A stretch of 64,000 bases of DNA from Escherichia coli (GTDB lineage: Bacteria > Pseudomonadota > Gammaproteobacteria > Enterobacterales > Enterobacteriaceae). The stretch lies in assembly GCF_024502345.1 (NCBI RefSeq), contig NZ_JALDNN010000003.1; one strand, written 5' to 3'. Position numbers: made by a program. This document shows positions 39,001 through 48,000 of the stretch, in pieces. Numbering within the stretch: position 1 is the first letter of the stretch; each line of letters begins with the position of its first letter.

Positions 39001-42000
39001 TCCCCGCTCACTGCCGGGGAGTCATTTTAAATCAGCACGGCGCCATCAGAATAGATTAGCTTTCAAACCAGGGCGAATCGGCAGAGTTCGCAGATTCTTC
39101 ACTTTGCTGTGACTCCCCCAGAAATTGCACTTCACGTACTGGTTTACTTTTCCCCAGGCTCCGCTGGAAATCATCCATCACAAACTCAATATCATCACGG
39201 TCCTCAGGCAAGACAGGCGAACTTTTGGACATAGTCTTTCCTTCAGTTAAAAGCGTTCTGCATACAGAACGCGGACGGAGACGGCAGTGTTGTCAAACTC
39301 ATTATCGAAGGTATCCATCCACTCGGTCCTGAACCCCTCGCCCAGCAGGTTATCGATCCCCTGAAGGGACAGAGGCAGGACGGCAGCTAAACGCCCGCCG
39401 GGAACCAGATGAGACGCAGCGGCCAGCAGATGCAGCTTAGCCCGGTTGTCAGCAAAAGGAGGGTTCATCACCACGCAATCAAATTTCTGAATCTGATTCG
39501 CCGCCGACCAGGCCAGAAAATCGGCTTCCGTGGTCTCGTAACCTTTAGCCCGGGAGACCAGACAATTCAGTGTATCCAGTTCGATGCCGGTTACGTTGAC
39601 ACTTTTCGGGAAACATTGAAGCAAATCCCCGTGCCCAATATTGGGCTCCAGCAGCCGTTCCCCCTCCCCGGCCGCAATAATGGATGCGACGTATTCACTG
39701 AGTCGCGCCGACGACGGATAAAACTGGTGGGATTTAATATCAGGCATGGCGCCCATATGTCCGATGAAGCGCATCACTTCGGTCGGGTCATAATCAAACG
39801 TCACATGGTAGCTTGTCACTCGGGCACCGAGAAATCGCAGAACATCCGCGTTCACCTGCCGCGTTTTATCAGCGTTCTCACCGGCATAGCCGAGCGATGT
39901 CCAGCTGGACCATTCCTTTTCATTCTGGGTAAAATCCAGCTCTGCAAGCTGCATCCGTGAATGAAAATCGATGCAGCGTTTCAGTGCCGGGAACTCCTGC
40001 AACGTCGCTTTGGTATGGGCCACGCGTTCAGCAGGCAGAGCCAGAGGGACGATGGCAGCAAGAATGTTGTTAAGCCGTTCGGCGATATCAGGATGCACAT
40101 CAATGTGCATCGATCCGTTTTTGTAGACCCGAAAACGAATACTGTTGCCATCCAGGCTGATCCAGTTTCTGAATCCAACATGACCAACCATATTCTCAAC
40201 CATTTTTTTCGTGTCATAGACCGGTTTAACTGTTTCGCCCCGGAAATAAGAACAGATCACCCGCAACTCCGAAAGTGGCATGAGGCCGGATTCTTTAAAC
40301 TCAACCTTCAGTTTTACCCATTTGTCTTTCACGCCTTCACATACGCCGGAGGTGATCATGCGAGTAGAGAAGCCAAATGCTTTATTGGTTTTGTGTTGAC
40401 GGCTTAATGACTGAAAGACGGCATAGACACGATCTTTAATGAACTGATGCCGGTCATTGAGCAACGCGACAACCGTGGTAACAACAGCATCGAGTGTAAA
40501 ATCAGGGATCTCCTGAGGAGGAAGGTGGTAACGGTCAGCAGTAAACTGCTTATCCCATTCTTTCTTCTTTTCGTCAGACATCACAGACAGTACATCGGTC
40601 AGGGCCATGACCCTCTTCCAGTATTCTGAACGCAGCGCGTTTTCTGCGTAGCTGGCATCCGCTTCTGAAATGAGATGATTGTATCCGGAGAGGTATGAAT
40701 AGAGCTTCTGATTCCCGCATTTCAGGAACTGAGCGGACATGGACCTCAGTAAGCTAAGCTCATCGTTATATGATTCGACCTGCCTGTTAATGACATCGAG
40801 CTCTTCCCGCATTTCGGGCAGGAAGTTATCGTCGTTAATAAGGAGGCCAGTATGAGGCATATAAGCAACCAGAGAACTCCCAGGGGCACCCATTGGCAGG
40901 GAATCAGATTCAACAGCAGACATAGCACCAGTCCTTTTTGAAGGGTTTATCTGATACCAGGATAACAACCTTGAACAAAAAGCTAATAGGTTGGCTGACA
41001 TGAAAATGGAGAAATTAACACTGCGGAAAGTCAGAAAGACAGATGTGGTTTTAATCAGAAGAAACGGGCCGGAGACAGGACAAAAAAACCCCTACATAGT
41101 AGGGGCAACGGGGGGAGAGCCTGGGTGGCTCGCTCTAAAATATCGTACTTCTTATTGTAGGCTTCTCACACTCTGAAATAATTCATTTAAGCCTGTGCTG
41201 GGGGGGGGGGGCGGATTGCGGTTCTCCGCCATTTTTATCGTTTTTCTTGGTTTTGTAAGTCACTTTTTCCCCTTTCAATCGGGCTTGCCGATTTTCGGCC
41301 CGGCGAAGCTGCTTGTTTTCTGATTCCGTAATCTCACTTTGCAGGTTCTTGAGCATCTCCAACATGCTCCGGTTCAGCGTAAAGGTAATTTCTTCATCTT
41401 CGCTGGAGTCGGTCACCTCCGGCAACTCGATATCACCGAGTTTCTGCAATAGACTCGTCGTAATGAGTTTGACCCCTTCGACGGCTTTTGTAGCGAGAAC
41501 TGGTGGAACACGTGCGGGTTTAAAATCGGAAGGGACAACACGGATCTGCCCGCGTGGCGTTTTCTTAATCTGGATACCGCTTGAATCAGCCTTTTCAAGG
41601 TCTGCGATCATCTTTTCGATCCGCGCAACAGCTTCCGTTTCACCGAACTCATCGATAAGGGACAGGACTGCTACATAGGAAATGGCATCGGCATGGATCA
41701 GTTTTTTGAGATAGACACAGCAGCCGGTCAAGCGAATAAGAGCAGCAATGGTGGTATTACTTTTTCCCTCACGTTCGGCAATACGGTCAAGCGACCATCC
41801 ACCCAGCGCCTGAAGACGTCGGTAGGATTCACCCAAAGCCACAGGAGAAAGAGCTAGGCCACGGTTTCCGTCAATCGTTGTCAGTTCGCAGCTGATCTCA
41901 TCGGCTTTCATCTCGATGCAAAGAATGGTGAGGTTAGAATGCCCTTCTGCCACAGCCATCAAAGCAGCCTTTAAACGGCAATGTCCCTGGCGAACGTACG

Positions 42001-45000: not shown

Positions 45001-48000
45001 TTGTTGTTTAACTGCTGTGCAATGCTTGCTGCAAACTTAGAATTGTCAGCTTGCAGCAATGCTAACTGCTCGCTGTGCCTACGTTTCCAGGCTTCAAGAT
45101 CGGGATTGCAGCGAAGTTCCGGGATAGTTTCAAGGAATTCAATGCACTCTTTCAGTACCAGCTTTTCCTCTGTGGCTGGAGACGTTTTGGAGCCATTGCA
45201 TGTCACACAGACGGCGTTCGCAATCTTTCCAGTCCCTCCGCATTCAAAGCACTCACGGGTGATAACGGCGTAATAGTGTCCATCTTTACCGTAGATAGGC
45301 TTTACGGATGATGGCAGTAAATAACCATCCTGAGTAAAAAAAAGAGAATGTTTCATTTTTTAAGGTTCTCCAGTCGAGCCTCCACGAGCTGTAAAGCGTC
45401 AGTTACCTTCTGTACGTATTGATCGTGCCCTTCTTCAAAATGATCAAAACGCTTTCCAGCCTTGATCTCTTCAATGTTGCGATCGAGTGTGCCTTTTGTA
45501 ATAAGTAGATCGTTATAAGTATTAATTACAGTAAACTGTGCAATCTTGTCCATAAACGGTCCTTAGCATTCTACTCACTTGTTAACAGGTCACGAATTTC
45601 ATGCAGTTCTGTAACCTTAGATTTTGGAATGATGATAGCAGTATTTTCATCATTCAGAAGGCTTAATAAAAGCTGGAGTTTTGCTTCATCTAGAGTGATC
45701 TTTACACTTTCCGTTGTCTTTGTGATGGAAGTGCTGCTGATGTTCGTAAATAAATTGGAATGTTGTCCGTCGAAAATTAATTCGGTGAGTTTATTACTGT
45801 CGTTTAGTGCTGGCCGTACAGTATCAATCAGCCCGATAAATTCAGTTTTTAAGCGTTCAGTTTTTTTATGAGAAAGCCGTTTAATACCCAATGAACTGCG
45901 AGTGATGGATTTTGTTTTAACTTCCTTAGGAATAACATGAACAGGGAGTGTTTCCGGGTTATCTAGTTTCTCATCGTTTGATGATGTTTGAACGCTTGAT
46001 GTCTTAGATAAAACAGGTTCTGGTTCAGTTGATGGTACTAAAAGAGAACACGATTCCAAATGTGCAAGGACTTTTGCATGGTCATTGGAATACTTCAACA
46101 TGATCTCAATCGCGAGTGTTTTTTTAATCAGGTTTAGACTGATTAAACGTTGTAGTTCTAAAGGCATATCAAGGATTTTAAGCTGGTTACGAATAGCAGT
46201 GCTAGACCGTTGATAGCGCATAGCAAGGGATTCAACGGTAGAGCCAAGCTTCAGCGCCTCTGCCAGTGCATAAGCTAAGGCTACGGGATTAAGACCGTTA
46301 TTCCTATTCCCATCAAGGTTCTCCAGGTATTCTTCACTTTTATTCTTATAGTTCATAACAACTACTGAAATGAGCTGAATATCAGCTCCTTCCGCAAGAG
46401 CAAGAGATAGTGCTCTGTAACGGCAATGCCCCTGCCTTACAACGTAATTGGAGTCTTTCTTAACAACCTTAATTAAATCGACTCGTCTGCCCTCTTTATA
46501 GGCTTGTTTAATAGAAACAATGGTCGATTTTACTGGTTCCTGTTCATAACAAAGTTCACCAATTACCGCTTCACGTGGATTGAATCCAGATTCGATAAAA
46601 AGTGCTTTAGGACTGATCTCAATAATCTGATAGTCGCAGTGATTCATATAACCTCCTTTTTATTACATGATACATTAATTGACTCAGTTTCAAATAACCC
46701 AAAAGCAAAAAACAATTAATTCGGTGCTTGACTGTAATTTTAGTTATGAAGGAATTAGGCCATTTTAATTTAAAATTTTTAAATCTGAATGGTTTGAAAT
46801 TAATATATCTTAAAAGCTTCAGATTGATTGATACTTCTTCCGGCTGCATTCCCTACTTGGCTAGAGTCCGAACCTGAACTTTTTAGGTCAGAGTTGGTTA
46901 ACAGACGGAATTTATCCACGTTTTCCACAAGTTAGATCAATTCTTTAGATCAAGAGAGATCAAGAGAGTACAAAAAAGATCACAGGTTCCGTAAATGACT
47001 GATTTTATTATGGAATAAGCATGATCAGGCATTCAGGTGCATGTAAAAAGCATTTGATTGAATAAGAAAAGCATTTACTTGAATTGAAAAGGCATTTAGT
47101 TTAATGCGAGAAAAGCATTTGCACGAATAATCTATTCACATCTAAATGTATCAAGGGATAAACCATGGTGGGTAAATTTAAATGAGTGATAACAATGAGG
47201 TAACACATCCTTTTGATGTGACCAACACGGAGACAGGGAAGACTTATCAACTGAGTCCAAACTCTTCGAAATCGGTCCAACCCATTGCTTTACTGCGCTT
47301 AAGTGTTTTTACCCCGGTGGGAACTAAAGAGAAGCGATACAGAAATTTTGAGGTTGACGCTTCTGATGAGTTGTCGAGCATGGAGCTGGCCCGTTCAGAA
47401 GGATACGATGACATTCGGATCACTGGTCTTAAGCTTTCGATGTCAACCGATTTTAAGTGTTGGCTCGGTTGCATAATGGCGTTCAGCAAATATGGTTTCG
47501 CTTCCGATAAAATCACATTGTCATTCAATGAGTTTGCAAAAATGTGTGGTATCAGTTCTACAAACATAAACAAGCGAACTCGCTCACGATTTCAGGAGGC
47601 GCTAGCAAACCTAGCTTCCGTTGTGATTTCTTTCCGTGATTCAAAAACTGAACGTTTTACTGTCACGCACCTTGTGCAGAAAGCAGTGATTGATCCTAAG
47701 AAGGACACCGTAGAGTTGGTGGGCGATCCCTCAATGTGGGAGCTTTACCGGTATGATCATAAAACCTTACTTAGTTTGCAGGTGCTTTCGGTTCTCGCTA
47801 AAAAAGAGGCAGCACAAAGCCTGTACATATATTTTGAGGCGATGCCTGCCGGTACGTTATTCGTAAGCATGAAGCGTTTGCGTGAGCGACTTCTGTTGAC
47901 GACTCCTGTACGAACTCAAAACCAGATCATCAGGAAGGCGATGCTGGAGTTAAAATCAATAGGATATCTTGAATATCAAGAGGTTAAGAAAGGTAGAGAT

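Follow-up and report, generated by a model that had tools for sequence, protein, structure and literature searches.

Orphan ParB-like proteins and orphan adenine methyltransferases of a conserved backbone module of IncHI plasmids, and a palindrome dispersed over these plasmids

The 64,000-nucleotide stretch of Escherichia coli contig NZ_JALDNN010000003.1 analysed here (the window) contains, at 39056-46647, a block of eight open reading frames (ORFs) encoding two ParB-like proteins, two adenine DNA methyltransferases (MTases) and four further proteins, and it raises the question of what such a set of genes does on a plasmid. The answer reached is that the block is a conserved, so far uncharacterized backbone module of IncHI plasmids, and neither a partition locus nor a restriction-modification system. 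The gene content had been listed in an initial annotation of the window, and all eight ORFs were found where it placed them. This 7.7-kb stretch shares 99.8% identity with R27 and pHCM1, both of them IncHI1 plasmids, and has DNA-level matches in 281 PLSDB plasmids. It corresponds to R0037-R0044 of R27, as judged by counting genes between R0036 (repHIA) and R0046 (an IS30 transposase), both of which are named in PMC7366339. The RefSeq labels of its genes are ‘hypothetical’, ‘DNA-binding protein’, ‘zinc finger-like’, ‘Dam family’ and ‘DUF4942’, and the original R27 annotation calls the 387-aa ParB-like protein (R0042) a ‘partition protein’. The searchable literature, a scope that leaves subscription-only papers on R27 and R478 outside, assigns no function to R0037-R0043.

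The central finding is a short palindrome, AAAAGT-N-ACTTTT, which is present in large excess, preferentially placed and conserved among IncHI plasmids, and which is apparently undescribed before. A generic repeat search for palindromes shared by the spacers of the block had given nothing convincing; the motif was found by aligning, between lineages, the spacer that separates the Dam-family MTase gene from the gene of ParB-like paralog 2 (ParB2), where a segment conserved in IncHI1, IncHI1B and IncHI2 contains AAAAAGTACCTTTTT. Scanning with AAAAGTNACTTTT and at most one mismatch (the 15-bp form of the palindrome is GAAAAGTNACTTTTC) returned 21 sites in the window, where dinucleotide shuffles predict 0.24, for example at 2871, 9548, 15786, 20952, 24663, 38787, 44286, 49118 and 54481. 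The reassembled R27 carries 50 sites, 26 of them perfect, where local shuffles give 0-2 and the runner-up among palindromes of the same 6-N-6 form occurs three times. In two annotated stretches, 16 of 31 sites are intergenic, compared with 18% of the DNA (p=2e-5). The palindrome is likewise abundant in IncHI2, IncHI1B, IncHI5 (13 sites in 17 kb) and metagenomic relatives, and does not occur in the control loci (IncC, F leading region and SSU5-like). Neither the palindrome nor binding sites of TrhR, TrhY or HtdA were found in the searchable literature.

The positions of the sites are conserved together with their sequence. A copy with one mismatch, AAAAGGTACTTTT at 42430-42442, lies ~90 bp upstream of the start codon of ParB2 (387 aa; 41183-42346, minus strand), of which it is a candidate auto-operator, and a site is found upstream of the ParB2 orthologue in all six lineages examined, at 45-120 bp in five of them and at 370 bp in the distant relative L007; in the distant relative L009 it takes the variant form GCAAAGTNACTTTGC. 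The start codon of paralog 1 (401 aa; 1572-2777, minus strand), which lies outside the block, is preceded at a distance of ~94 bp by a perfect palindrome (2871-2883). Orthologous positions are kept although the surrounding spacer diverges, and those upstream of trhA and htdT and just past the repHI1A stop codon are conserved as well. So is the site upstream of the Ig-like gene that comes after the module: a perfect palindrome at 38787-38799, ~130 bp upstream of this 834-aa gene in the window, recurs in IncHI2, IncHI1B, IncHI5 and L009. Another perfect copy (44286-44298) falls within the 5′ end of the gene for a 273-aa protein, on codons 24-27 (KVTF), where K24, V25 and T26 are invariant and F27 nearly so; the same position is occupied in IncHI2 (locus L002, 12069) and IncHI1B (locus L003, 11055). 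In R27, the oriT spacer has copies on either side, one of which precedes R0121, the first gene of the H operon, by 81 bp, and further copies lie upstream of repHI1B (at 33165 in the window) and in the divergent region between R0153 and R0154. These last two genes (R27 140402-142567; locus L006, 45403-47568) share a perfect palindrome in their promoter region; R0153, annotated ‘partition protein’, is thermonuclease-like by positional assignment, and R0154 is a cytosine MTase.

Palindrome-like elements are also built into the RepHI1A origin. The gene repHI1A (R0036; 47182-48057, plus strand), which flanks the block, encodes an iteron-type initiator (PHROG 775, 3e-105) and is followed by an iteron array and then by trhA, the first Tra2 gene. 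The array (48531-49130) consists of ~14 units of 43-44 bp, each made of an iteron (AAAGCATTTGnATGAATG) and a degenerate palindrome copy (AAAAGTGCCTTTT and variants), and it ends in a perfect palindrome at 49118 that precedes trhA by 266 bp. The alternating sites of this array may be taken by two different proteins. The RefSeq ‘hypothetical protein’ annotated over part of it is probably spurious.

Candidates for reading the palindrome are encoded in the window itself. It holds three ParB-like paralogs, mutually 33-35% identical: paralog 1, ParB2 (R0042) and paralog 3 (ParB3; R0037, 358 aa, 45571-46647, minus strand). ParB2 has a ParB N-domain, a ParB-type helix-turn-helix (HTH) and a family-specific C-terminal region; the two proteins of the block match PHROG 1033 ‘ParB-like partition protein’ (E 4e-30 and 9e-24) and the Pfam ParB HTH. 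The initial annotation had called them ‘ParB/Srx-like’ and considered nuclease activity, but the ‘Srx-like’ part is not indicated: they align to the ParB/Noc/Spo0J N-domain plus HTH, and sequence comparisons gave no evidence of nuclease activity. In alignments to the Spo0J and Noc structure sequences, GHCRLKA (ParB2) and GHCRYRA (ParB3) line up with the CTP-binding GERRxRA, and IDGNR (ParB2) and ENLDGNR (ParB3) with ENLQRE. The arginine of GHCR, R124 in ParB2 and R76 in ParB3, is invariant. The recognition helix of ParB3, TAIRNxLKI, is nearly invariant between lineages.

These proteins are not ordinary partition ParBs, a point on which the initial annotation was right. Their TIGR00180 scores (18.2 and 33.9 bits) lie below the cut-off of 58.45, a regular-expression search for the ParA-binding motif [LFI]G[KR]G[LFI] found none in ParB2 or ParB3, no lineage examined has a ParA partner gene in the block, and no repeat cluster of the centromere kind lies at either gene. 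The true parA/parB of R27 are in Tra2, with separate repeat arrays upstream of the true parA, and parM is likewise outside the block. A type Ia ParABS assignment is rejected on these grounds and on the GHCR that stands in place of GERR.

As proposed here, the orphan ParB-like proteins (paralogs 1-3, above all the abundant R0042) would act as sequence-specific DNA-binding regulators or organizers in the manner of KorB or VirB, with the ~50 palindrome copies near backbone promoters as their most likely targets. The target loci would comprise the ParB-like genes themselves, trhA, htdT, the H operon and oriT, repHI1B, the Ig-like genes, R0153/R0154 and the RepHI1A iterons, and binding there would couple replication, transfer and establishment genes. 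ParB-like binding is favoured because sites lie upstream of ParB-like genes, because KorB provides a precedent, and because the palindrome and the ParB-like family co-occur in every IncHI-type locus examined.

The closest known system is KorB of the IncP-1 plasmid RK2, a ParB-family CTP clamp whose operators lie from 4 bp to more than 1 kb from promoters (PMC11790492). Like the IncHI proteins, KorB is a plasmid protein that joins a ParB N-domain to an HTH DNA-binding domain, and its short palindrome is dispersed over promoter-proximal and promoter-distal places that include replication and transfer genes and its own promoter region. KorB, however, is also a partition ParB, with a ParA partner (IncC), the co-repressor KorA and a canonical GERR, whereas the IncHI proteins have no ParA partner, carry GHCR in box II, come as three paralogs and show negligible similarity to KorB (E 0.23), their palindrome being a candidate operator. 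VirB offers a second parallel: in PMC10245682, it is described as a ParB-like, CTP-dependent anti-silencer of H-NS on the Shigella virulence plasmid, that is, as an orphan ParB-like protein of a large, H-NS-silenced, thermoregulated enterobacterial plasmid. Transfer of R27 is thermoregulated by H-NS/Hha, and R0042 is up under permissive conditions. VirB differs in that it controls virulence genes and does so at 37 °C. HerB (YfjB) of plasmid F is also a plasmid ParB-like protein with an HTH, non-partition and conjugation-associated (PMC13370423); it is itself a 652-aa, four-domain protein encoded in the leading region, whereas the block lies ~60 kb from oriT. Membership in the HerB group, defined by at least 80% coverage of the four domains, is rejected, since the alignment is limited to 167 columns of N-domain and HTH (hhalign 76%) and BLASTP gives nothing significant.

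Published expression data single out ParB2. In a microarray study of R27 (PMC7366339), R0042 reached 6132 a.u. at 25 °C against 2278, was 2.69-fold up relative to 37 °C and had the highest expression among the genes induced at 25 °C; an htdA mutant and log-phase cells showed induction of R0042 too, together with that of the tra operons, R0153 and R0154. R0044 was weakly repressed at 25 °C, and no block gene other than R0042 was otherwise reported as thermoregulated in that study. A terminator-like hairpin with a T-run (41088-41106, minus strand), found by sequence scan between ParB2 and the large MTase gene, is consistent with an expression of R0042 far above that of its neighbours.

The palindrome might instead be the operator of the TrhR/TrhY activators, of the HtdA repressor or of some other plasmid factor, with R0042 as one member of the regulon and the ParB-like proteins acting elsewhere, for example on the host chromosome. 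This would fit the sites upstream of trhA, htdT, the H operon and oriT, R0042 and R0153/R0154, as well as IncHI5, which has the motif without ParB3, a full-length protein of the zinc-finger type or the 273-aa protein, and HerB is a precedent for a plasmid ParB-like protein that targets the host chromosome (PMC13370423). Most of the 50 sites, however, are at genes not reported as controlled by HtdA or temperature (repHI1B, repHI1A and Ig-like genes among them), and many are outside the tra regions; a compact 13-bp palindrome that is dispersed and also found upstream of ParB-like genes is the KorB pattern, and what the IncHI proteins share with HerB is the generic N-domain and HTH, without domains III-IV. 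The alternative is unlikely, and regulation by the ParB-like proteins is preferred.

Both MTases of the block are orphan, as the initial annotation had it: no restriction gene lies in or beside the block in six lineages examined, and PADLOC gives no defence-system match across the block except to MTase models. The smaller enzyme (274 aa; 42706-43530, plus strand) is transcribed divergently from ParB2 and convergently with the 273-aa gene. Its placing in the Dam family stands, with a TIGR00571 score of 230.5 bits against a cut-off of 114.85, although it falls under the EcoDam equivalog cut-off (171 vs 441); its best PADLOC matches are the MTase_II and orphan MTase models. The segments KWAGGK, NRxGYNGLCRYN and DPPY are conserved in an alignment to the EcoDam structures 2G1P and 4GOL, and a specificity for GATC may reasonably be inferred. 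The large enzyme is encoded at 39247-40923 on the minus strand (558 aa if read from the RefSeq start; with the first ATG the ORF reaches 41001 and codes for 584 aa, and homology to IncHI2 begins at residue 23 of this longer form). It carries motif I (EPNIGHGDL, residue 452) as well as motif IV (NPPF, residue 513), as first noted, and the layout then regarded as unfamiliar belongs to an existing, though uncharacterized, family: Pfam DUF4942 (residues 122-316, 1e-22) is followed by a C-terminal gamma-class N6-adenine MTase domain (MTS/N6_Mtase), and PHROG 6263 ‘DNA methyltransferase’ covers the full length (E 8e-115). Identity is 70% to the IncHI2 homologue and 31% to those of SSU5-like phage-plasmids, where the gene stands alone. 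The DUF4942 MTase is a dispensable, accessory part of the module, because some relatives lack it or have another enzyme instead: L009-L011 are without it and carry a different MTase after the 273-aa gene.

A plausible substrate for the Dam-family enzyme is found at the two origins. The GATC clusters that the initial annotation had seen at both are there, with 9 sites at 33218-33517, immediately upstream of repHI1B, and 5 at 46935-47023, in the spacer between the divergent ParB3 and repHI1A genes. In 300 shuffles, 9 GATC in 300 bp were reached twice and three windows of at least 5 GATC per 150 bp also twice, and chance alone often gives one window of 5 in 150 bp. In IncHI2 and IncHI1B, the same ParB3/rep spacer holds clusters of 5-6 GATC, another lies upstream of repHI2, and clusters are found upstream of the divergent rep gene in L007 and, weaker, in L009. 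Because the clusters are conserved in IncHI1B and IncHI2, a plasmid-borne Dam acting on methylation-sensitive origins is a fair hypothesis. P1 oriR and oriC are established as methylation-dependent or SeqA-controlled origins, and they resemble the IncHI origins in that GATC clusters accompany iteron origins here. As proposed, the Dam-family enzyme would methylate GATC so that the clusters of both origins, and the plasmid as a whole, stay fully methylated whatever the level of host Dam, and the DUF4942 enzyme would add a second adenine mark; both marks would be made in the donor and would pre-protect the transferred strand from restriction. Two GATC-dense stretches also occur inside the block, at 43536-43685 (4 sites per 150 bp, at the convergent ends of the Dam-family and 273-aa genes) and at 45421-45570 (5 sites per 150 bp, from the 66-aa gene up to the end of the ParB3 gene).

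Protection might even be the main purpose of the block. It could be an anti-restriction or establishment island in which the ParB-like proteins load or activate the adjacent DNA-modifying enzyme, so that the plasmid is methylated quickly around conjugation, the palindrome being unrelated or a loading site. Leading regions typically encode orphan MTases and ParB homologues (PMC11541004, PMC7736820), a phage ParB homologue is the required activator of a DNA-modifying dioxygenase on double-stranded DNA (PMC13229309), R0042 and the cytosine methylase R0154 are both induced under transfer conditions, and relatives that lack the DUF4942 MTase bear a different extra MTase in the block. The neighbourhood of ParB-like and MTase genes also recurs outside IncHI, because IncC (locus L004, 6950-10167) and the lytic phage 9NA (locus L017, 7428-9253) each encode a homologue of this ParB-like family with a DNA MTase gene only a few genes away. 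Position, however, speaks against it. In R27, mobI and the relaxase gene lie at 103.9-108.1 kb, or 103.9-108.9 kb with the oriT spacer, whereas the block is at 40.8-48.5 kb, some 60 kb away, with its genes on both strands in divergent orientation; the parallel with phage and plasmid anti-restriction regions drawn in the initial annotation is weak for this reason, and a leading-region anti-defence island is rejected on position and mixed strands, no search for single-strand promoters having been made. The MTases resemble the orphan enzymes of other mobile elements (M.EcoGIX, leading-region and phage Dam-like MTases) in being on a conjugative plasmid without a cognate nuclease, but differ from those of leading regions in lying outside such a region and in not being fused to ParB. 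Moreover, the hairpin separates ParB2 from the MTase gene, ParB2 is kept where the DUF4942 gene is lost and DUF4942 MTases occur alone in SSU5-like phage-plasmids, R0041 and R0043 are not among the induced genes, and these ParB-like proteins retain a full HTH, which the dioxygenase activators do not. An island of this kind is improbable. A protective role of the MTases within the preferred reading remains plausible, because methylation made beforehand in the donor needs no early expression.

The other half of the block is a set of four genes headed by ParB3. Next to ParB3 are a 66-aa protein (p66; 45353-45553, minus strand) and a 235-aa zinc-knuckle protein (44649-45356, minus strand), whose genes are translationally coupled through a 4-nt overlap; then comes the 273-aa protein (p273; 43545-44366, minus strand). 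The initial annotation was correct in seeing a Cys zinc finger but overstated it as DnaJ-type: the protein has a single N-terminal Cys4 knuckle (C36xxC39...C50xxC53), a helical middle and a beta-rich C-terminal domain. Kinship to DnaJ or to anti-TRAP is rejected on that single knuckle and on scores far under the family cut-offs, and the strand pattern leaves the impression of an OB-like C-terminal barrel. The family is very small: an exhaustive profile search of 1.84 billion proteins returned only 16 cluster representatives, tblastn against phages gave no match, and a search for distant homologues indicates that the zinc-knuckle and 273-aa families are essentially restricted to IncHI-type elements. 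In the structure model of the 273-aa protein, the predicted fold is that of a plasmid Rep with two winged-helix domains (WH1-WH2), and no nuclease is among the top structural matches; TM-scores to Rep structures are just 0.3-0.4 over the full length. The protein has no significant Pfam match and none in NCBIfam, PHROG or PADLOC, shows no sequence similarity to RepHI1A (hhalign probability 0.3%), and has no direct-repeat array beside its gene that could serve as its iterons. It is read here as a cryptic, Rep-like DNA-binding protein with two predicted winged helices. It would thus resemble iteron-type initiators such as pPS10 RepA, RepE, TrfA and RctB in predicted layout, in similar length and in being encoded beside a replicon, and differ from them in lacking detectable sequence similarity and an identified iteron array of its own, and in the low TM-scores.

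The set travels with a particular type of replicon. By tblastn, the zinc-knuckle and 273-aa genes are found in the same number of PLSDB plasmids, exactly 1393, in identity bands of ~100% (IncHI1), 80-90% (IncHI1B-like) and 53-63% (IncHI2); all of these plasmids were taken as IncHI1- to IncHI2-type from identity band, host genera and sampled contexts. The full gene order is kept in the IncHI2 plasmid pCFSA1096 and the IncHI1B plasmid pLEC-7c0d: Tra2, rep, ParB3-p66-zinc knuckle-p273, the Dam-family gene on the opposite strand, ParB2-DUF4942-58-aa ORF and the Ig-like genes. Contigs with the most distant zinc-knuckle members, from metagenomic relatives, show the same order beside Tra2. A 65/66-aa ORF is kept at the p66 position in IncHI2, IncHI1B, L007 and L009. 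The ParB3 set is tied to the RepHI1A-type replicon, because a rep gene of this type adjoins ParB3 in five lineages, divergently in IncHI1, IncHI1B and IncHI2 and co-directionally in L007 and L009, where ParB3 lies just downstream. In these two, the RepHI1A-type initiator (L007 4930-6492, L009 4636-6282; 520-548 aa, PHROG 775 like RepHI1A) directly precedes ParB3 on the same strand, and the two may share an operon. The ‘inter-replicon’ location that first defined the block is accurate for the window, where repHI1B (33527-34396) forms the other flank (RepHI1A and RepHI1B are 35% identical), but it is an accident of IncHI1, since the block is a backbone module of IncHI1, IncHI1B, IncHI2 and distant relatives. 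IncHI5-type Klebsiella plasmids have a reduced version with one ParB2-like gene, a remote zinc-knuckle homologue (a 222-aa neighbour, hhalign 93%) and an unrelated 254-aa protein with no sequence link to the 273-aa protein; no ParB3 orthologue was found in IncHI5.

ParB3, p66, the zinc-knuckle protein and the Rep-fold protein are best pictured as a replicon-associated accessory set that would act at or near the RepHI1A origin. Taken further, the four could be a dedicated apparatus for maintenance or replication control of the RepHI1A-type replicon, with the array as a centromere-like or handcuffing site and ParB2 and the MTases as passengers. The constant adjacency to rep, co-directional and directly downstream in L007 and L009, the predicted Rep fold, the near-invariant recognition helix of ParB3 and the alternation of iterons with palindrome-like elements in the array all suit this version. 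Against it stand the lack of a ParA or other motor gene in the block of a plasmid, R27, that owns two partition systems (parA/parB and parM), the retention in IncHI5 of a zinc-knuckle homologue and a palindrome cluster without RepHI1A or ParB3, and the fact that none of the four proteins has a known function; a role confined to this replicon is decidedly unlikely.

Hardly credible is a cryptic type II restriction-modification system with the 273-aa gene, convergent with the Dam-family gene and 14 bp from it, as a GATC-directed endonuclease. DpnII/MboI-type systems typically pair convergent M and R genes and include a protein of this size, and D96 and K105 of the 273-aa protein are conserved in a loop; but no neighbour has a nuclease family match, the predicted Rep-like fold counts against this protein as the missing endonuclease, and in L009 another gene sits between it and the Dam-family gene, so that the system is rejected.

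The reading preferred overall, in which the ParB-like proteins are KorB/VirB-style regulators, the palindrome is their probable operator, the MTases serve protection and origin methylation, and a replicon-linked set includes a Rep-fold protein, is tentative, at somewhat less than an even chance, and several points weigh against it. The palindrome could be bound by TrhR, TrhY, HtdA or another protein. There is no site with one mismatch or fewer directly upstream of ParB3, IncHI5 carries its 13 sites yet no ParB3, and the recognition helix of ParB2 orthologues is variable where the palindrome is invariant. Box II of the ParB-like proteins lacks one of its two arginines, and with it the clamp-type CTP chemistry may be absent. 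Among the eight genes, co-regulation with transfer is reported for R0042 only. The clustering of GATC is just moderately significant within this one window, and enterobacterial hosts already own a Dam, so the benefit of a plasmid copy is unclear. The Rep-fold call comes from a medium-confidence model (pLDDT 70), and the AF2 model of the zinc-knuckle protein (pLDDT 56.8) is too poor for structure search or interpretation.

A stronger version may be entertained, though it is rather more doubtful: a plasmid-wide cis-regulatory network of ~50 copies, read by orphan ParB-like proteins whose nucleotide pocket is non-canonical (GHCR), would physically couple the RepHI1A origin, oriT, the pilus operon and establishment genes, and ParB3, p66, the zinc-knuckle protein and the Rep-fold protein would make up accessory machinery of a new kind associated with the origin. 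Multidrug resistance in typhoid Salmonella travels on IncHI1 and IncHI2 plasmids, and those of the IncHI2 type are common vehicles of resistance throughout Enterobacterales; how temperature controls their transfer has been explained only in part. A palindrome at promoters, both origins and oriT offers a concrete and testable handle on global regulation in IncHI plasmids. If the preferred reading is true, ParB-family regulators with an altered nucleotide motif would extend to a second major plasmid group, and a possible target for blocking plasmid transfer or maintenance would be at hand.

Some minor features complete the locus. The last gene of the block is a 58-aa acidic ORF (39056-39232, minus strand; 13 D/E, 6 K/R), R0044 of R27 by gene count, which lies 14 nt 3′ of the large MTase gene; NCBIfam, PHROG and PADLOC scans gave no family match, and a 177-nt ORF is kept at its position in IncHI2 and IncHI1B. 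No Rfam RNA family was found across 38.5-49.5 kb, and a promoter scan returned fewer consensus promoters than shuffled sequence, hence it is uninformative. The Ig-like-domain gene beside the block (36154-38658, minus strand) is intact here and broken by IS30 in R27, which identifies the window as a close IncHI1 relative and not R27 itself. Paralog 1 of the ParB-like family, with its second palindrome at 2989, is near a Hok-family toxin gene (3633-3935, minus strand) and insertion sequence elements. In phage 9NA, the 8 copies of a TAACA-N5-TGTTA motif are concentrated towards the ends of the genome and could not be linked to the ParB-like gene of that phage. Two further repeats lie upstream of parA genes. 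At 60777-61737, in a 3-kb unannotated region upstream of the true parA, an ATTAAA-N3-TTTAAT palindrome occurs four times with an exact 320-bp spacing and is probably a partition centromere or a large tandem repeat. The IncHI5 plasmid pKPN-edaa (locus L005, 13170-14733) has seven copies of AACAAC-N3-GTTGTT upstream of parA, which are centromere-like and distinct from the dispersed palindrome.

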